The notes under the pieces are model-generated. The model saw only the letters and a program-made list of their open reading frames with translations, was not told the DNA's origin and ran no database searches. A stretch of DNA of 39,924 bases, from positions 1-39,924 of IMG/VR virus record IMGVR_UViG_2778261064_000020; one strand, 5' to 3'. The DNA comes from a virus. Its lineage: Duplodnaviria; Heunggongvirae; Uroviricota; Caudoviricetes. The position numbers were made by a program, and so were the translations under genes. Shown here piece after piece: positions 7,509 through 37,435 of this stretch. Position 1 is the stretch's first letter. The number at the start of each line of letters is the position of its first letter.

Positions 7509-8132
7509 CTATGCGGCCTCGGAAGGAAGTCCAATCATCTTATTCAAATCTTCTACCCGTAAAGCAGGAAGTGCTGTACTTGCTTTATCTGCTTCTTTTG
7601 GTAGCAATTCTTTGCTTTCAGGCCAAACCTCAATAAGTCGCTTAACTGTTGTGACTGAGTTCAAAGCAGCCCATACATTTGATTCGATATCCTTTTTCTT
7701 GGCTTCAAGTTTTTGTTGCAATGCGCAGATTTCATCAAACCTTTTTGTTATTTCGTGTTCTGCGCTAAACATGCATTTATCTTTGTTCGGAGTAGGGAGC
7801 AATATATCTTCGCCGTTGCCGTCTTTCCCATATGAAAGCCATCCAACCCTTCTGCCAGATACAGTCAGATAAATTGAAGTAGAACGAACATCGTATGAGT
7901 AAAATGAACATCCAATCTTTCCAAGTTCTTCACTTATAGCTACCAACTTGGATGATAACTGATTCACTTCCTCAGTTTTCTTTTTACCGCCAAACGCAAT
8001 AACTCTGGCGTCAAGTGCAAGCTGGTTCTTTAACTTTGTTACTTCTTCAAGTTCAGTGAAAACCCCAGACTTAATTAAAGCGTTACGAGCGATTTCCTCT
8101 TTCATTCTCGTAGTTAAGCGGATTGATGACAT
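7509..8132 (-). CDS. Hypothetical protein in the N-cIII intergenic slot (lambda ral/sieB/ea10 position)
   Basis: 207 aa starting MSSIRLTTRMKEE with a GAGG ribosome-binding site; soluble, no recognisable motif. Confidence 0.55.
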   Translation of the reverse strand: MSSIRLTTRMKEEIARNALIKSGVFTELEEVTKLKNQLALDARVIAFGGKKKTEEVNQLSSKLVAISEELGKIGCSFYSYDVRSTSIYLTVSGRRVGWLSYGKDGNGEDILLPTPNKDKCMFSAEHEITKRFDEICALQQKLEAKKKDIESNVWAALNSVTTVKRLIEVWPESKELLPKEADKASTALPALRVEDLNKMIGLPSEAA

Positions 8133-8143
8133 ATTAATTCCTC

Positions 8144-8470
8144 TCAAATAAGTGGTTTGCTGCCTAATTTCATTTTCTGGCGACCAACACAAGTCACACC
8201 CATTTCACTGCGTGGCTTGCTGTACCATGTGCGCTGATTCTTGCGCTCAATACGTTGCAGGTTGCTTTCAATCTGTTCGTGGTATTCAGCCAGTACCGTA
8301 AGGTCTATCGGATTCAGTGCGCTTTCTACTCGTGATTTCGGTTTGCGATTCAGCGAGAGAATAGGGCGGTTAACTGGTTTTGCGCTTACCCCAACCAACA
8401 GGGGATTTGCTGCTTTCCATTGAGCCTGTTTCTCTGCGCGACGTTCGCGGCGGCGTGCTTGTGCATCCAT
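8144..8470 (-). CDS. N: Antitermination protein N
   Basis: MDAQARRRERRAEKQAQWKAANPLLVGVSAKPVNRPILSLNRKPKSRVESALNPIDLTVLAEYH... is near-identical to lambda N as recalled (arginine-rich motif). Confidence 0.85.
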   Translation of the reverse strand: MDAQARRRERRAEKQAQWKAANPLLVGVSAKPVNRPILSLNRKPKSRVESALNPIDLTVLAEYHEQIESNLQRIERKNQRTWYSKPRSEMGVTCVGRQKMKLGSKPLI

Positions 8471-8580
8471 CTGAATTCTCCTGTCAGTTAGCTTTGAGTA
8501 ACGCGCCGTGATGCTTATCTCCACGGTTGCTGTCTTGCAGCTGCATTTCGCGCTACTCAAAGCTTTCTGCTTTGAATGCT

Positions 8581-29623: not shown

Positions 29624-31030
29624 ATGTCTACTTGGCAAGGAACAAACGGCGGATTGTTGGCTGGTATCGGCGGCGTCAACTCAAACGCTCCGAGCGTAAA
29701 CGACATCGGCAATACGCTTCAGCTTATCAGGCAGAACAATGATATTGAGCGTTCAGGCGCTAACAATGTTGGGCTGACTGCTTTGCAAGGCCTTTCAGGT
29801 ATTGCGGGGGTGTTTCAGCAGGAAAAGCAGGCTCAGCGGCAGAAAGAATTTCAGCAGGCATACGCTAATGCTTATGCGTCTGGTGATCGCGGTGCTTTGC
29901 GTCAGTTGGCTACTCAATATCCAGACCAGATTGAATCCGTTCGTAAAGGCATGGGATTCATTGATGAAGAGCAGCGTAATTCTATCGGCACCTTAGCGGC
30001 TGGCGCACGCCTTGCGTCATCGTCTCCAGAAGCAATGCAATCATGGCTGCAAAACAACGCCAAGGAACTGACTCGCGTCGGTGTTGACCCTAACAGCGTT
30101 GCTCAGATGTATCAGCAGAATCCTTCAGGATTTGGTGAGTTTGTTGATCACCTTGGGATGGCTGCTCTCGGTCCGATTGACTACTTCAATGTTCAGGACA
30201 AGATGGCTGGTCGTGAGATTGACCGAGGCAGGCTGGCAGAGACAATCCGCAGCAATCAGGCTGGAGAGGCGCTTCAGGCGAGAGGGCAAAATCTTTCCTA
30301 TCAGTCAGCAATGACTGGTCACAATATCGCAGCGCAACGCTTGGCTCTGGATCAGCAAGAGTTCGGGTTTAAGATGCAGCAAGCGCAGGAAAAGGCTCAG
30401 CAGTTGATTAGCGAAGCACCTAAGCTGTCAGTAAACATGGAAAAAGGCATCGAGACGGCTGTAAACAATGCCACAGCATCATCAAACTCAGCCAATTCCA
30501 TGAGTGCGCTTGCTCAACAGTTCAGAGCAGAAAAACCAACGACAGGTTTGTTCGGTAACGCACAGAACATGTTCGCAAAACTTACCGGAAGCGATACGAC
30601 ATTGCGTGATTTGCGCATTCGCCAAAATGCCCTTGTTAACAGTCAGGTTCTTAAATTCCTACCTCCCGGCCCCGCAACGGATAAAGACGTTGAGATCGTT
30701 CGTCAGGGTGCACCAACTGACATGGATAACCCTGAGACGGTCGCAAGATGGCTTGATGCTATGGCAAACCTTGAGCGACGAAACGCGCAGTTTAATGAGT
30801 TTAAAGCCGAGTGGATGAGCGCGAATGGCAACCCTGGACAATCGCGTAATGGCGGTCAGATATTGGGGTTGGATGTTAAAAAAGGTGAATCATTGGGGAG
30901 TGCCGTTAAGCGGTATATGTCGATGAATACTGACGCAGCGCCAGCACAAGATTCGACACCTTCAGGAGAACCACGGAATCAGGTTGGATCATATACCTCA
31001 AAATCAGGCATTCAATTTACGGTGGAATGA
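29624..31030 (+). CDS. Ejection protein (P22 gp20-like)
   Basis: 468 aa; position and size. Confidence 0.7.
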
Positions 31031-32874
31031 TGAAAGTAACTGCAAACGGTAAGACATTTACCTTTCCTGATGGTACGAGCACCGAAGATATTGGCACCGC
31101 CATTGATGAGTATTTTGCTGGTCAGGCTGTTCAGCAACAAACAGTTAATCAGGCCAATAATGCACCAACACGGGAAGAACCATCATTGATGCAACAAGCT
31201 GGCGATTGGCTCACTGGTGGTCAAAGTGCAGGGCAAATTGCAGAACAGGCTGGTCGTGGTCTGGTAAACATACCATTTGACGTATTGCAGGGTGGCGCAA
31301 GTCTGATTAATGCAATCAGTCAGGGGCTTGGTGGACCCAAGGTTTTGGATGATGTTTATCGTCCAGTAGACAGACCGACAGACCCCTACGCGCAAGCCGG
31401 TGAAACAATTGGTGGGTATTTAGTTCCAGGAGTTGGAACGGCAGGAAGCATGGCTATTGGCTCACTGGCAGAGGCCACAAATCAGAAAGGCGATTTCGCA
31501 CAAAATGCAGCTAAAAATGCCGGAGTTAACCTTGCCACTCAGGGTGTTCTTTCCGCAGCAGCAAAGGGAATAGGGCGTGGAATAACGGCTATAAAAGGTG
31601 ATATTGCGCCAGAAGTGGCGAAGAAAATTGCCACATCAGAATCGATGGGCGTGACACCAATGACATCTGATGTTATCCCGCCGAAAAATGCTTTCACTCG
31701 CGGCCTAACTCAGGATGCCGAGGGGGCTTTGCTCGGGACAGGCTCAAAGCGAGCGGAGCAATATGCAACGCGTAGTAAGTTGGTAAGTAATTATTTTGAC
31801 CGTTTTGGTGAGTACAACCCGGATGATGTGGTGAAATCTCTGACCACCACGTTAAGGGGACGGAAGGATGCCGCTGGCGCTGTTATCAATGACGTTACCA
31901 ATAAAATGGGTAATGCCGCAGTTGATACCACAAATACCATGAATGCTCTGAATACAGCGATCGCAAGACAGGAACGGCTTGGGACGTCTGCCAATCAAAG
32001 CCTGCTTACATCCTTGCGTAACCTACGTGAAGAATTAGCAAACCCTGCAACTGATTTGGATGTTACGTTTGATCTCTTGCGTCAGCACAGAACAGCATTT
32101 AGATCTAATGTTCAGGGAGATGCTATGGTCTTCCCCAACCAGGCAAAAGCAGCTACCAATATGGTAGAGAATGCAATGTCAAAAGATCTTCGTAACGCAG
32201 TTGCAAAAAACCTCGGTGCATCAGACGCAGCAAAATACCTTAAAGCAAATTCCGATTATGCAAACGTTTATAATAAGGTGCTTAATAAAAACATTGCTAA
32301 CAAGCTCAACAAGGCAAGCAGTGAAGCCAGTCCTGAACTTATAAATACCGTTGTATTAAGCAGAAAACCATCTGACGTGAAACGAATCTGGAGCGCACTG
32401 GATGATAAAGGGAAAGATGCTATGCGTGCAGCTTACGTCAGCAAAATAGCGGAAAAGGCCGGTGACTCTCCAGCCAAGTTCATCACTGAAGTTAATAAGC
32501 TGAAATCTCAGTCAGGCGGTGAAATTTACAACACTATTTTTTCAGGAAAGCACATGAAAGAGCTTGATGCTCTTCATGAAGTTCTACAGCAAACAGCAAG
32601 GTCAGACACCGCAAATGTAGTAACTCAGACGGGGCAATCGCAAGCCAACAGGATAAGGACGATTGGCGCAACTGCGACTCTTGGCGTATCAATGGGGCTT
32701 GAGGCTGGTTTCGGTGCAATGATGCGCTTGTATGAGTCCAAAGCAGCAAGGAATGCTCTCTTACGTCTGGCAAACACCAAAGCAGGAACACCAGCCTATG
32801 AAAGAGCGCTAAATAATGCTGCAAATGCGATACGCCCTATACTTTCAAGCCAAATTACAGCAGAACAGCAATAA
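31027..32874 (+). CDS. Ejection protein (P22 gp16-like)
   Basis: 615 aa; position and size. Confidence 0.7.
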
Positions 32875-32888
32875 AAGATAAGATATAA

Positions 32889-33374
32889 CTACCTGATATT
32901 ACTGCTACTGTTGCATGTTACCGTGTTTCCAAATCCTGAATTGCAGTTTGTATATGTGTCAACGCGTGTTGGGTAAGGTTGAGTTATAACAGGCTGGCGC
33001 GCTTTTTGCTCGATCGCTTGCATTGTGTTTACAGCCTGATAATTCAATAAAGCCTGCTGGAATGCTTGGCTTTGTGCTATTTGTTGTGCTTGTTCTTGGC
33101 TTTGTAATTGAACATAAAGATTCTGAAGTTCAAGTCTTGCCTGTGTGTCACTTATCTTGCCTTCATCGACACCTTGCCCGAGCATCTTCGCAGCAAGGAC
33201 ATACAGCTTAGGTGTTGGTGCTGATGCCATGCGAGAGTCGTTCTTCAAGCTGGCATCAAGGCAATTAGCCATATCGCTAAGCTTTGGATAGCGTTGCTCG
33301 CAACTTGCCTGATAGTCGCTTACTTTTGCGCACCCAGCCAGCAGAAGCGGGATAATTAACAGTGATTTTTTCAT
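32889..33374 (-). CDS. Lipoprotein of unknown function (moron in the sieA slot)
   Basis: Start at MKKSLLIIPLLLAGC with AAGGAGAG ribosome-binding site; signal peptide plus lipobox LLAGC; Gln-rich helical middle; Cys-containing C-terminus. Confidence 0.6.
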   Translation of the reverse strand: MKKSLLIIPLLLAGCAKVSDYQASCEQRYPKLSDMANCLDASLKNDSRMASAPTPKLYVLAAKMLGQGVDEGKISDTQARLELQNLYVQLQSQEQAQQIAQSQAFQQALLNYQAVNTMQAIEQKARQPVITQPYPTRVDTYTNCNSGFGNTVTCNSSSNIR

Positions 33375-33408
33375 ATAATTAACTCTCCTTAGTTTTGCGC
33401 AGGATACC

Positions 33409-33774
33409 ATGAAAAAAGTTAACATTGGAAACGTACCAAAGATGCTCGTACCGCTCTTTGAGAGCGGTACAATTGTGTTTTGTAGAGACTTTCCAGAATG
33501 GCAACGCCTGCATCAAAAACTTGGCGTTGACGTGCATGACTCGGACGCCAACGGAGCGTCTCATACAATGAGTAGCGAGAATGGTGTTTTGCATGTGATA
33601 GGCGTGTTCAATGGCAAACTATCTACTATTGCCCATGAGTGCGCTCACATGGCATTCGATATCTGCTCAAGGGTAGGTGTTGATGTTGAACCAGGAAGAG
33701 CCAACGAGACTTACTGCTACTTAATGAGCAGGCTTGTTGAGTTCTGCGAGCGACATATCAAAAAGCCGGAGTGA
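33409..33774 (+). CDS. Small HExxH-motif protein, putative Zn-metallopeptidase-like
   Basis: 121 aa; IAHECAHMAFD contains HExxH with a Glu 19 residues downstream (gluzincin-like spacing); AGGA ribosome-binding site; divergent from the lipoprotein gene with only 34 nt between start codons. Confidence 0.5.
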   Translation: MKKVNIGNVPKMLVPLFESGTIVFCRDFPEWQRLHQKLGVDVHDSDANGASHTMSSENGVLHVIGVFNGKLSTIAHECAHMAFDICSRVGVDVEPGRANETYCYLMSRLVEFCERHIKKPE

Positions 33775-33787
33775 CCCGGCTTGATTA

Positions 33788-33967
33788 TTACTTTTTGCTG
33801 TCTGGAGTTCGCTTATCCAATACCCAGCCATGACCTGGCTTTGTTGTTGGTGGAAGCCTTTCGTTGTCCTTGACGGTGGCAAAATTGTCTTTCTTACCGC
33901 CGCGTGGGCCAACTTCTTGGTATATTCCGCCGTTTTTCCCTGTGTTTTCACCTGGTTTTTTCGCCAT
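33788..33967 (-). CDS. Small hypothetical protein (59 aa), possibly YjzC-like
   Basis: MAKKPGENTGKNGGIYQEVGPRGGKKDNFATVKDNERLPPTTKPGHGW...; GAGGT ribosome-binding site; convergent with the HExxH gene. Family assignment is tentative. Confidence 0.45.
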   Translation of the reverse strand: MAKKPGENTGKNGGIYQEVGPRGGKKDNFATVKDNERLPPTTKPGHGWVLDKRTPDSKK

Positions 33968-34066
33968 GATATACCTCAACATACACCCGCTATTGGGCGA
34001 TTAAATATTGATCTCATTTTATAAGTAGTCAATATGGCCCAGGTAAATGCAAAAATTAACTCACCG

Positions 34067-34318
34067 TCAGGTGGTTTTTTTGTACAAATCCTTCAGCGTA
34101 TCAAACACCATCTTCTTAACAAGATCTGACTGCTCATCAGCGAGTCGTTCTGCATCGTCACGATATCCAGTCACAGGCGATGGTTTTGATAGAGCATCTT
34201 GGACGATTTGTAACAACTCGGAGTTCATTGATCTCCCATTCGCCTCCGCCCTGAATTTTAATTTCTCCCTTACTTCCATAGGCATACGGAAGTTAAAGTG
34301 CGGATCATCTCTAGCCAT
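34067..34318 (-). CDS. mnt: Mnt repressor (ribbon-helix-helix, immI)
   Basis: 83 aa MARDDPHFNFRMPMEVREKLKFRAEANGRSMNSELLQIVQDALSKPSPVTGYR..., P22 Mnt. Confidence 0.9.
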   Translation of the reverse strand: MARDDPHFNFRMPMEVREKLKFRAEANGRSMNSELLQIVQDALSKPSPVTGYRDDAERLADEQSDLVKKMVFDTLKDLYKKTT

Positions 34319-34408
34319 GCCATCACTCCAAGTTAGTGTGTTGACATGATAGAAGCACTCTACTATATTCTCAATAGGTCCACGGTGGACCTATATTGTG
34401 AGGTGAAT

Positions 34409-34570
34409 ATGAAAGGAATGAGCAAGATGCCGCAGTTCAATTTGCGGTGGCCTAAAGAAGTATTGGATTTGGTACGCAAGGTGGCGGAAGAGAATGGTCG
34501 GTCTGTTAACTCTGAGATTTATCAGAGAGTAATGGAAAGCTTTAAGAAGGAAGGGCGCATTGGCGCGTAA
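34409..34570 (+). CDS. arc: Arc repressor (ribbon-helix-helix, immI)
   Basis: [54 protein letters not shown]22 Arc; the track ORF has a spurious N-terminal extension. Confidence 0.9.
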
Positions 34571-34638
34571 AGTTGAAGCCCCAACTGCTGGAACAGTCAG
34601 GGCTTCGGTTGTCAGTAAATCCGTGGAGAAAAACCAAC

Positions 34639-35574
34639 ATGAATAGTATAGCAATTTTAGAAGCAGTGAACACCTCTTACGTACCATTCAACGGTCAGCA
34701 AATTATCACCGCCATGGCTGCCGGAGTTGCATATGTTGCGATGAAGCCAATCGTTGAAAACCTTGGAATGAGCTGGTCAACGCAGCAAACAAAACTCATG
34801 AAGCAGATTAGCAAATTCAACTGTGTTCATATGAACATGGTTGCCGCTGATGGGAAGCTTCGTAAGCTACTCTGCCTTCCTTTGAAGAAGTTAAATGGAT
34901 GGCTGTTCAGCATCAACCCTGAGAAAGTTCGTGCTGACATCCGTGATAAACTGATTCAGTACCAGGAGGAATGCTTTAGCGTGCTGCATGACTACTGGAC
35001 TAAAGGCCATGTAGTTAACCCACGCAAAGCTAAAAAGGCGTTGCCGGGTAAAATCACCACTGAACAGCAGGAAGCCATTAAACAACTCGTCATGAGTCGC
35101 GGTCAGTCTCTGCCAAAAGAAAAACAGGCTAAGGCGATGATCACCATGTGGTCGTCACTGAAATCCCATTTTGGATGTTCGTACAAAGAAATCAGTGAGG
35201 AGCAGTTTACAGAAGCACTGTCACTTGCAGCTCGAGTTCCACTTGAAGGCGAGTTTATCGGCAAACAAGAGAAGAAAGCAAACGAGCTTTCTGCAAAAGA
35301 AGCAAACAGCCTTGTATGGTTATGGGATTATGCTAACCGTTCACAGGCATTATTCCGCGAACTGTATCCGGCGCTAAAACAAATTCAATCGAACTATTCC
35401 GGCAGATGCTACGACTACGGTCATGAATTCTCGTATGTTATCGGAATGGCGAGAGACGTTTTAATAAACCACACACGAGATATTGATATTAATGAGCCAG
35501 ACGGACCAACGAATCTTTCCGCATGGATGAGACTTAAGAATAAAGAATTACCTCCTTCAGTACATAACTACTGA
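34639..35574 (+). CDS. ant: Antirepressor Ant
   Basis: [53 protein letters not shown]... matches the P22 Ant N-terminus. Confidence 0.85.
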
Positions 35575-35674: not shown

Positions 35675-37435
35675 ATGACAGACATTACAGCCAATGTTGT
35701 AATTGGGATGCCTTCGCAACTCTTCACTATGGCTCGTTCTTTTAAAGCCGTAGCCAATGGCAAAATTTATATCGGTAAAATTGACACTGACCCGGTAAAT
35801 CCAGAAAACCAGATTCAGGTTTATGTAGAGAATGAAGACGGCTCTCACGTTCCTGTATCGCAACCAATCATCATTAACGCTGCTGGTTACCCGGTATATA
35901 ACGGACAGATTGCCAAGTTCGTAACTGTGCAAGGCCATTCTATGGCTGTTTATGATGCGTATGGTGCACAGCAGTTCTATTTTCCCAGCGTTCTAAAATA
36001 TGACCCAGACCAGTTCAAATATCAGCTATCAGGTGCTGGGGGCGCATCGATGATTGGAACGGAAAGACAGGGTAATCTGCAAGAAGTTGCGAATGCAATA
36101 AATACAAGTAAAAACATAGGTGAATTTAATTCAAATATAAATAATTTACTTGCTCATGTTACCGATTCAATTATTTCAGACGATTCATTTATTATACCAT
36201 CATTTGCCACTTTAAGTGGCGCTCCTGGATTTCTTACAGGGTTCATTGGAACTACGTATTCAAAGAATAAAACAATACGTAAATCCAGCAACACATCTGC
36301 AACCCTTACCAACCAGGACCCTAATGCAGGAAGCCAAACTGTTGATGCCGTTGTTTATCAAGATCCTGCATGGCCTAATGGATCTGTTTTTCCGCAGAAA
36401 ACAACTATAAAAAATATTACACTGGAGGGTAATTCAGCCTCAAGCAAGAACGATGCGGGAATATTTGTTCTTCAAGGTGGTGTTTTAGATATCGAGAACG
36501 TTGATGTAATCAATTGCCGAAATGCGTTTTGGGGAAAGGATATCTGGCAAAGCAGTATAGCGAGAGTGTTTTCTAATGATGGAAAAATCAGGATTGATGG
36601 CGGCACGTCTGTAACTCTGAGAGGTTGCGGATTAGCGTCAAGTGACACCACCAGGCCTGGGGCATTTGATTTAAATAATCTAAAGTATTCCTCACTGATA
36701 AACTGCACATCAGATAACACAACAAATACGGCATTCTCATTCAATGGTTGTCATGGGATTGTAGTAGATGCATGTGGTTGTGAGGGTGCAGGAACAACAA
36801 CCGCAGATACTGCTACAGCACTAAACTTTATCGATAACAACCATGGCATCATTGTTAATAGTTTTGTTTGCGTACCAGTTGTAGGCCAAGGGCCAGCAAT
36901 TATAGCGTTTGGTTCTAATAACGATGTGATCATTAACAATCCAGAACTTGCATTTGGCATTACCTATAATGTTGATATTTATATTCACGGACCGGGTAAT
37001 AGAATAACTATAAATGGTGGAAGATTTGGAGCAAATGGAGATGCTCTTCCGATTATTGTTGCGTCAGACAGTGCTGTAGGATCAATAGTCATATACAATT
37101 CAAATAATGGCATTAGACATTTATACTCAGTGAAAGCAGCAGGAATTGTGACTCAAATACAGGAATTCAGGCCTATAGTTTCAGCTGTAATTGATGGGAC
37201 AACCGGAAACGTAACAAAGGGATATGGAGTTGACTCAGTTCAAAAAACAGGCGATGGGGCCTATACAGTACATTTCACAAGTCAAGTGGCAACTGGATAT
37301 TCAATCCAGCAATTAAGTTCGGTTGGATTTGTTCAGGTTGCATCATTTACTGATAACGCAATAGCATTTACGCTGCTGAATCCTAGCCTGACAGCTACTG
37401 ATTCGTCATTCTCAATAAATATAAATGGCTGGTAG
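35675..37435 (+). CDS. Tailspike protein: P22 gp9-type N-terminal head-binding domain fused to a distinct beta-helix receptor-binding domain
   Basis: N-terminal ~110 aa ([11 protein letters not shown]...[35 protein letters not shown]...[12 protein letters not shown]) match P22 gp9; the remaining ~470 aa are unrelated and rich in N/G/I/V repeats, typical of a beta-helix. Confidence 0.85.

Follow-up and report, generated by a model that had tools for sequence, protein, structure and literature searches.

Only a short list of phage lipoproteins is known to act in superinfection exclusion, comprising Cor, Llp and Ltp. Cor, encoded by phi80, N15, HK022 and T1, is a small lipoprotein that inactivates FhuA and whose gene seems to adjoin tail or host-recognition genes in its carrier phages, and Llp of phage T5 is an outer-membrane lipoprotein that has a disulfide important for its function and blocks FhuA, reportedly from the periplasmic side. 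Spackle (Sp) of phage T4 is a periplasmic, mostly helical protein that excludes incoming phages once they have adsorbed, through inhibition of the gp5 tail lysozyme. The present analysis concerns a lipoprotein gene on the minus strand of a complete P22-like prophage of Escherichia coli (IMG/VR record IMGVR_UViG_2778261064_000020, positions 1 to 39,924, analysed at its full length of 39,924 nucleotides and hereafter called the window), whose open reading frame (ORF) stands exactly where P22 encodes SieA. The sieA gene is a prophage-expressed exclusion gene, its product is broadly specific, and mutations that escape it map to the C-termini of the ejection proteins gp16 and gp20 (PMC10883804). 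Leavitt et al. found sieA in only 22 of 66 P22-like phages, and the genes that replace it were not discussed (PMC10883804). The lipoprotein belongs to the family phrog_6067 and to no characterised family, and it represents a positional and regulatory alternative to SieA. It is very probably a genuine, prophage-expressed envelope lipoprotein.

In P22 (BK000583), gene 16 is followed by sieA (minus strand, 164 aa), the sieA promoter, the hkcC region, orf59a, mnt, arc, ant and gene 9. The corresponding order in the window, with gene names taken from PMC2629481, is gp7, gp20 and gp16 on the plus strand, the lipoprotein gene on the minus strand, an hkcC homologue (plus), orf59a and mnt (both minus), and arc, ant and the tailspike gene (all plus). 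An earlier note, made from the DNA letters without database searches, had placed a lipoprotein gene in the sieA position, and alignment to P22 reveals this placement to be exact, down to the same promoter and Shine-Dalgarno sequence. Homology between the two phages in the block that covers hkcC, orf59a, mnt, arc and the 5' part of ant breaks off 11 nt upstream of the lipoprotein ATG, right after the Shine-Dalgarno sequence, and on the other side gene 16 shares only 69% identity with its P22 counterpart, with homology stopping at 32838 (BLASTN). Compared side by side, the leader of sieA and that of the lipoprotein gene match through '...ttccaatgttaacttttttcatggtatcctgc(a/g)caaaactaaggag'. Since the leader is shared up to the Shine-Dalgarno sequence and the annotated sieA promoter is fully preserved, the lipoprotein ORF is a precise ORF-for-ORF replacement of sieA behind the same promoter and ribosome-binding site. 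The swap may have used the AAGGAG common to both leaders as microhomology. Several E. coli genomes are homologous to the window from exactly the lipoprotein stop codon onwards (region 32838-32902), indicating that the cassette recombines at both ends of the ORF and independently of the gp16 allele.

Within the promoter region, TGGTATCCT at 33401-33409 forms an extended -10-like element, and 50 of 80 related loci carry the corresponding TGnTATCCT at 25-35 nt before the ATG, even where the sequence farther upstream differs; AAGGAG is kept in 70 of the 80. A consensus promoter scanner, whose counts were no better than those of shuffled sequences, missed the sieA-type promoter, so that the case for the promoter is built on the P22 annotation, conservation and RNA sequencing (RNA-seq). 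A terminator-like hairpin after orf59a/mnt would end the mnt/orf59a transcript, which implies that the lipoprotein gene needs a promoter of its own. At its 3' side, the gene is convergent with gp16, the two stop codons are 14 bp apart, and a terminator scan called no terminator between them.

The minus-strand ORF of the earlier note (32889-33374) was confirmed in the window, where a longer ORF reaches 33425. Its ATG lies at 33374, with the Shine-Dalgarno sequence 10 nt upstream, and RefSeq/PGAP calls an identical 161-aa coding sequence, WP_016231948.1, named 'hypothetical protein'. The ORF is not a chance product, because it matches phrog_6067 (PHROGs v4) over its full length (E = 2.9e-109, positions 1-161 of 161), has 90 clusters of homologues and shows a ratio of nonsynonymous to synonymous substitution (dN/dS) of 0.044. 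What had been described as a textbook lipoprotein signal is canonical in sequence. The N-terminus MKKSLLIIPLLLAGC contains the lipobox LLAGC with Ala at position +2, fits the pattern of signal peptidase II substrates (a positively charged n-region, an uncharged h-region and [LVI][ASTVI][GAS]C with its Cys at position 15-35), and satisfies a PROSITE PS51257-type rule (a Lys in the first seven residues, no Asp, Glu, Arg or Lys in the six residues preceding the lipobox, and Cys at position 15). When this rule was applied to all window ORFs of at least 40 aa on both strands, it was satisfied only by the lipoprotein gene and by Rz1 (18110-18316). All 27 family members compared, which span 51-97% identity, keep Cys15 and Ala16, and a lipobox is present in 213 of 237 relatives, none of the 213 having Asp at +2. 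Under the Lol rule of E. coli, lipoproteins without Asp at +2 are sorted to the outer membrane, and the +2 Ala thus leads one to expect that the protein is anchored, via the Lol pathway, in the inner leaflet of that membrane. The mature part contains no hydrophobic segment (Kyte-Doolittle maximum 0.47 over 19 residues), which, together with the invariant lipobox and +2 Ala, argues for an envelope location.

The mature protein consists of a helical head, a glutamine-rich extension and a C-terminal hairpin. An AlphaFold2 model built from a 110-sequence alignment has a mean predicted local distance difference test score (pLDDT) of 78, with the head (residues 18 to about 96) at 87-94 and the hairpin (138-160) at about 73, and shows one continuous helix from residue 76 to 125 followed by a Pro-rich linker. 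The Gln-rich helical segment and the Cys-containing C-terminal region pointed out in the earlier note are both borne out, the former as 14 Gln in 42 residues (positions 84-125) and the latter as the conserved pair Cys143/Cys154 within the motif T.C...G....C. Four cysteines of the mature protein are conserved (C25, C38, C143 and C154), and Cys25 and Cys38, invariant in the head domain, form a putative disulfide, which would give the protein two disulfides in all. The head is the most conserved part of the superfamily (KLY.L.A..L...V..G.IS...AR.ELQ.LYV), and the Gln-rich stalk is missing from 'short-type' relatives of 125-140 aa. As modelled, the stalk and hairpin would project into the periplasm from the anchored head.

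Evidence for transcription in the lysogen comes from the orthologue in Gally, a prophage of adherent-invasive E. coli (AIEC) LF82, where LF82_138 (GALLYPH_13) encodes a protein 97.5% identical to that of the window and RNA-seq data are available (PMC9928086, tables S1 and S4). After overnight growth in lysogeny broth (LB), its normalised counts were 78.2 and 62.2 (mean 70.2), compared with a prophage median of 15.6 and the authors' moron cut-off of 78.1, that is, 4.5 times the median versus the cut-off of 5 times (PMC9928086). On the scale of log2(fpkm+5), where fpkm denotes fragments per kilobase per million, LF82_138 reached 6.29/5.96 in LB, 7.87/8.15 in condition B1, 8.02/8.22 in condition B6, 10.29/10.30 at 1 h in macrophages and 8.70/8.54 at 6 h in macrophages (log2 fold change relative to LB 2.55, q = 4.7e-27), with the adjacent Gally gp16 gene at 3.6-4.15 in all conditions; outside LB, the lipoprotein gene thus stood about 20- to 80-fold above its neighbour (PMC9928086). 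The authors state that Gally has no moron (PMC9928086). In this, the only transcriptome study to cover it, the Gally lipoprotein gene falls just under the authors' threshold and is transcribed in the lysogen while the late genes are silent. The gene therefore has the two attributes of a moron, its own promoter and transcription in the lysogen, the latter recorded for the Gally orthologue with its different upstream region. In the same data, the unrelated divergent gene GALLYPH_14 reached log2 values of 9.8-11 in other conditions, with late genes at 3-4 (PMC9928086).

The family phrog_6067 is the lipoprotein's own and carries no annotation or function; all 62 diverse relatives examined also match it. 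Homologues form 90 clusters at 51-97% identity in Enterobacterales, and their divergence roughly tracks host family. Of 5426 complete E. coli genomes, 182 (about 3%) carry the gene, always on the chromosome, with clinical carriers including O26:H11 (O26 enterohaemorrhagic E. coli, EHEC), sequence type 131 (ST131) and AIEC LF82, and it is also present in 124 IMG/VR contigs. Among 50,697 phage records, only five have it, those of Gally, vB_EcoP-720R6, VSe13, MS2 LVA and Proteus phage Brookers, and the absence of any classical model phage among them explains why the family was overlooked; no paper on the lipoprotein or WP_016231948.1 was found in the literature. Two annotation anomalies were noticed: a Cronobacter member is misnamed 'general secretion pathway protein GspK', and a 167-aa E. 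coli 'recombinase' with an ERF domain starts with the first ~50 residues of the lipoprotein and probably reflects a chimera or a mis-called gene.

The gene lies between gp16 and the tailspike or immI region, convergent with gp16, in Morganella, Yersinia ruckeri and phage Gally, and the same gp16-adjacent slot is used in Atlantibacter and in metagenomic P22-like prophages, down to 27-37% identity. When 1.8 billion representative proteins were searched with a profile, 238 relatives were recovered, none with a Pfam match, most of them lipoproteins of the short type that combine the same head domain with the T.C...G....C loop. Among relatives at 27-37% identity whose contigs were examined, most again occupy the gp16-adjacent slot of P22-like prophages. 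Some of these loci have the gene downstream of mnt, with a conserved hydrophobic peptide of 35-42 aa encoded after it, which may be a small inner-membrane partner and has no counterpart in the window. This peptide, encoded on the same strand and predicted as one hydrophobic helix (..NIILWIIFAALVTISIQLSNITKLLR..), was located after short-type relatives in L094 (5412-5519), L095 (1843-1968), L099 (6939-7067) and L100 (4704-4832). A different setting was found in a metagenomic lambda-like prophage (L097, 5389-5808), where a 36%-identical member, possessing a signal peptide but no lipobox Cys, is encoded on the opposite strand between gpJ plus two morons (phrog_557 and phrog_425) and the side tail fibre gene. 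The interval between gpJ and the side tail fibre is presumably the lom slot of lambda. A Burkholderiales member adjoins a small terminase subunit, a polyvalent protein and an MmeI-type enzyme, and the family extends to environmental Beta- and Gammaproteobacteria. A locus search with a tighter family alignment returned three genome loci only and no viral loci. In E. coli strain 41 (NZ_CP076285.1, 811407-828507), a deleted prophage remnant beside ybhC and ybhB, reduced to int/xis, a few early genes, a truncated gp20, gp16, the lipoprotein gene, immI, the tailspike and an acyltransferase, retains the lipoprotein gene intact, with the region 100% identical over 1.1 kb. Its survival in so decayed a prophage would fit a function that benefits the host.

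Comparison with characterised proteins yielded no homologue. The lipoprotein has no match in Pfam at E up to 1 (including Lambda_Bor PF06291 and TraT PF05818), in NCBIfam, or among the defence systems of PADLOC-DB 2.0 at E up to 1. Among PDB sequences, a profile search produced chance matches only (E at least 0.3), and a Foldseek search of the model against BFVD and PDB gave nothing at E < 0.2. Homology to SieA (types A, B or C) was rejected, as BLASTP produced no alignment at E up to 100 and the SieA motif FxRYPxEAxxFNK is absent; neither a SieA homologue nor this motif was found in the window or in about 90 lipoprotein-bearing loci. In the loci examined, sieA and the lipoprotein gene behave as mutually exclusive, alternative occupants of one slot. 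The two proteins share the locus between gene 16 and hkcC/mnt, the orientation antisense to the late operon, the promoter and Shine-Dalgarno sequence, and a similar length (161 versus 164 aa), whereas SieA is polytopic in the inner membrane, with three or more hydrophobic segments (Kyte-Doolittle values up to 2.6), and the mature lipoprotein is hydrophilic. A match to Cor (phrog_1119; E = 0.092) was confined to residues 1-29, the signal peptide, and was rejected, weak Cor matches occurring in only 3 of the 62 relatives. Like Cor, the lipoprotein is small and phage-encoded, but it is twice as long, has another architecture and is carried by O-antigen-specific podoviruses. The mode of action proposed below would correspond to binding from the periplasmic side as in T5 Llp; Llp, however, gives no sequence or fold match in PHROG or PDB and is an early gene product of a virulent phage. 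Lambda Bor/Iss (PF06291) is likewise a prophage-expressed outer-membrane lipoprotein encoded among late genes, yet it gives no Pfam match at E up to 1, and there is no evidence of serum resistance for the present protein. T4 Spackle differs in lacking a lipid anchor and coming from a virulent phage, with no PDB fold match. In type, therefore, the protein resembles Cor, Llp and Bor, and it fails every homology test for them. It is possibly an envelope or exclusion moron with a new fold and perhaps a new target, the idea of a phage-excluding prophage lipoprotein itself not being new.

Table 1. Coordinates in the window of the lipoprotein gene, its parts, its control elements and its framing features
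Feature	Position	Strand	Remarks
Lipoprotein coding sequence	32889..33374	-	161-aa precursor, 147-aa mature protein, ~16.2 kDa, isoelectric point 7.8; phrog_6067 member
Signal peptide and lipobox MKKSLLIIPLLLAGC	33330..33374	-	Cys15 predicted as lipidated residue
N-terminal helical head domain, residues 18-96	33087..33323	-	AlphaFold2 pLDDT 87-94 and alignments
Gln-rich extension of long helix, residues 97-125	33000..33086	-	helix 76-125 in model
Pro-rich linker (126-137) and C-terminal beta-hairpin (138-160)	32892..32999	-	pLDDT 54-73
Shine-Dalgarno sequence AAGGAG	33385..33390	-	last sequence common to P22 sieA leader; marks recombination junction
Promoter region	33401..33439	-	33409-33439 corresponds to the annotated P22 sieA promoter (BK000583 13861-13891), 31/31 identical
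Block 92.8% identical to P22 13837-15458 (BLASTN)	33385..35006		'ant moron'/immI region framing the cassette
gp16-type DNA-transfer (ejection) protein	31027..32874	+	convergent with lipoprotein gene
hkcC homologue, divergent neighbour	33409..33774	+	121 aa, phrog_1365, HExxH motif
Bidirectional terminator-like hairpin after orf59a/mnt	33763..33782		P22 mnt terminator annotated at the same place
Tailspike	35675-37435	+	

The prophage is flanked by a lacY-like gene on one side and by the integrase gene and then a formate/nitrite-transporter gene on the other. Several features of its other genes were recorded in passing. The 5' end of the hkcC homologue overlaps the lipoprotein promoter region and contains a perfect hairpin with a 10-bp stem (33448-33470) just upstream of the sieA-type promoter; the protein carries the HExxH motif TIAHECAHMAFD and may be a small metallopeptidase, and a near-identical intact ORF is present in P22 BK000583 (L090, 3862-4227), where it is unannotated. 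In the early region, the minus-strand gene at 7509-8192 encodes an Nmad5 (nucleotide modification associated domain 5) protein and adjoins a homologue of the N antiterminator (8144-8560).

The most probable interpretation is envelope-level superinfection exclusion via a conserved host component, to which a probability of roughly 0.4 can be assigned; exclusion of phages in one form or another is somewhat more probable than not. The lipoprotein would be a non-homologous functional alternative to SieA in the exclusion slot, driven by the sieA promoter. Its binding partner may be a conserved component of the host envelope, situated at or beneath the outer membrane, candidates being an outer-membrane protein used in penetration or a periplasmic element needed for the DNA conduit, with the disulfide-stabilised helical head and/or the stalked C-terminal hairpin as the putative working parts. 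An incoming phage would then adsorb to the O-antigen but fail to complete DNA delivery, a logic like that of Llp or Cor and unlike that of SieA. Exclusion is suggested because the ORF that is replaced under the annotated sieA promoter is that of an exclusion gene; further support comes from the mutual exclusivity with sieA, the conservation of the slot across genera, the predicted envelope location, expression of the Gally orthologue in the lysogen and retention in the strain 41 remnant. As for the target, comparison with the Gally allele gave a dN/dS of 0.044 at a dS of 0.24, which represents strong purifying selection with no sign of diversifying selection on the lipoprotein. The gp16 alleles that accompany lipoproteins at least 97% identical show 100%, ~34% or undetectable C-terminal identity, the gp20 alleles range over 36-100%, and a test for co-variation of the lipoprotein with gp16 or gp20 alleles detected none. 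A near-invariant lipoprotein beside variable ejection proteins, together with the relative in a lambda-like siphovirus, makes a conserved target in the host envelope more likely than recognition of particular ejection-protein alleles. The anatomy and position given in the earlier note have thus stood, and the role in superinfection exclusion or surface modification that it proposed is inferred, the protein having no homology in sequence or fold to Cor, Llp, Bor, SieA or any solved structure.

Several observations weigh against this interpretation. P22-like phages are not known to depend universally on a protein receptor. No known exclusion protein resembled the lipoprotein in sequence or fold in the searches of PHROG, Pfam, PADLOC, PDB and Foldseek, and the literature reports no phenotype for it. 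The relative in the lambda-like prophage lacks the lipobox Cys, and two distant relatives occur in contexts without evident phage genes. The upstream region in Gally differs from the sieA-type promoter of the window, making the RNA-seq data parallel evidence for the window copy, and Gally formed no plaques even on a Gally-deleted host, a result uninformative on exclusion (PMC9928086). Moreover, occupation of a moron slot is no proof of exclusion, given that genes of unknown function are also located between gene 16 and gene 9 (PMC2629481).

Other explanations account for parts of the same evidence. The lipoprotein might exclude phages by acting directly in the periplasm on the incoming conduit of gp7, gp20 and gp16, that is, at SieA's step approached from the outer-membrane side, with the stalk and hairpin intercepting the assembling tunnel. 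The occupation of the exact sieA slot, the constant convergence with gp16 in P22-like prophages even at 27-37% identity, the SieA escape mutations in the gp16 and gp20 C-termini (PMC10883804), and the modelled helix of ~50 residues that carries a distal hairpin away from the anchored head all agree with such a mechanism, and the broad specificity of SieA leaves it some probability. It is nevertheless unlikely, as the lipoprotein is near-invariant against gp16 and gp20 that range from 34 to 100%, its low dN/dS gives no sign of an arms race, relatives reside in a lambda-like siphovirus and a Burkholderiales element without such ejection proteins, and the short-type relatives lack the stalk that would do the intercepting. 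Alternatively, phages might be unaffected and the gene might be a factor of lysogenic conversion akin to Bor/Iss that helps the bacterium within an animal by changing envelope properties such as adhesion or resistance to serum, lysozyme or antimicrobial peptides. Its encoding of a predicted outer-membrane lipoprotein, antisense to late genes and prophage-expressed as with lambda bor, its frequency in clinical E. coli (O26:H11, ST131, LF82), its survival in the decayed prophage of strain 41, and the level of the Gally orthologue 1 h after macrophage uptake, ~18-fold above that in LB (log2 10.3 versus 6.1), can all be read in this way. However, the induction in macrophages is not gene-specific, since it extends to the entire right end of Gally, the tailspike gene included, deletion of the whole of Gally left macrophage survival unchanged (PMC9928086), the family is also found in environmental Beta- and Gammaproteobacteria, and neither Lambda_Bor nor any other Pfam family is matched; a conversion factor is thus quite unlikely.

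Two further possibilities concern the cell wall and lysis. A periplasmic inhibitor or immunity protein directed against cell-wall hydrolases, such as the murein hydrolase of an incoming virion (following the logic of T4 Spackle), host lysozyme or periplasm-acting toxins, is improbable. A component of lysis or virion assembly, for example an outer-membrane spanin, is hardly credible. In its favour, the protein is a lipoprotein with a Pro-rich segment, and it gave a weak match to an Rz-like spanin PHROG, which, at E = 0.07 and restricted to residues 5-36, was rejected as reflecting the signal peptide region. The prophage has its own Rz (17890-18357) with embedded Rz1, located 15 kb away on the opposite strand, and the lipoprotein gene lies outside the lysis cassette of the late operon, for which reason an Rz1-type outer-membrane spanin was discarded. 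The gene also runs opposite to that operon behind the sieA promoter, and its Gally orthologue is transcribed while late genes are silent.

If envelope-level exclusion through a conserved host component is the correct interpretation, the consequences would extend beyond this prophage. The conduit by which P22-like podoviruses carry DNA across the periplasm is still poorly understood, and the few genetic handles on it include SieA and the requirement for YajC (PMC10883804). As a non-homologous occupant of the SieA exclusion slot, the lipoprotein would give a second, independent probe of how the conduit is built, and it would add a new family to the exclusion lipoproteins; the clean sieA swap and the breadth of the family are noteworthy to the P22 specialist in their own right. 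On a broader and rather doubtful view, phrog_6067 and the 238-member superfamily would constitute a second, structurally new class of envelope-level exclusion proteins in temperate phages of Proteobacteria, lipid-anchored with a 'head, stalk and hairpin' layout, blocking DNA delivery after adsorption while it is at the outer membrane or in the periplasm, interchangeable with the inner-membrane SieA behind one promoter in P22-like phages, and present also in lambda-like siphoviruses. Were this true, the target of the class would reveal an as yet unrecognised component of the host or of the conduit for podovirus DNA delivery.

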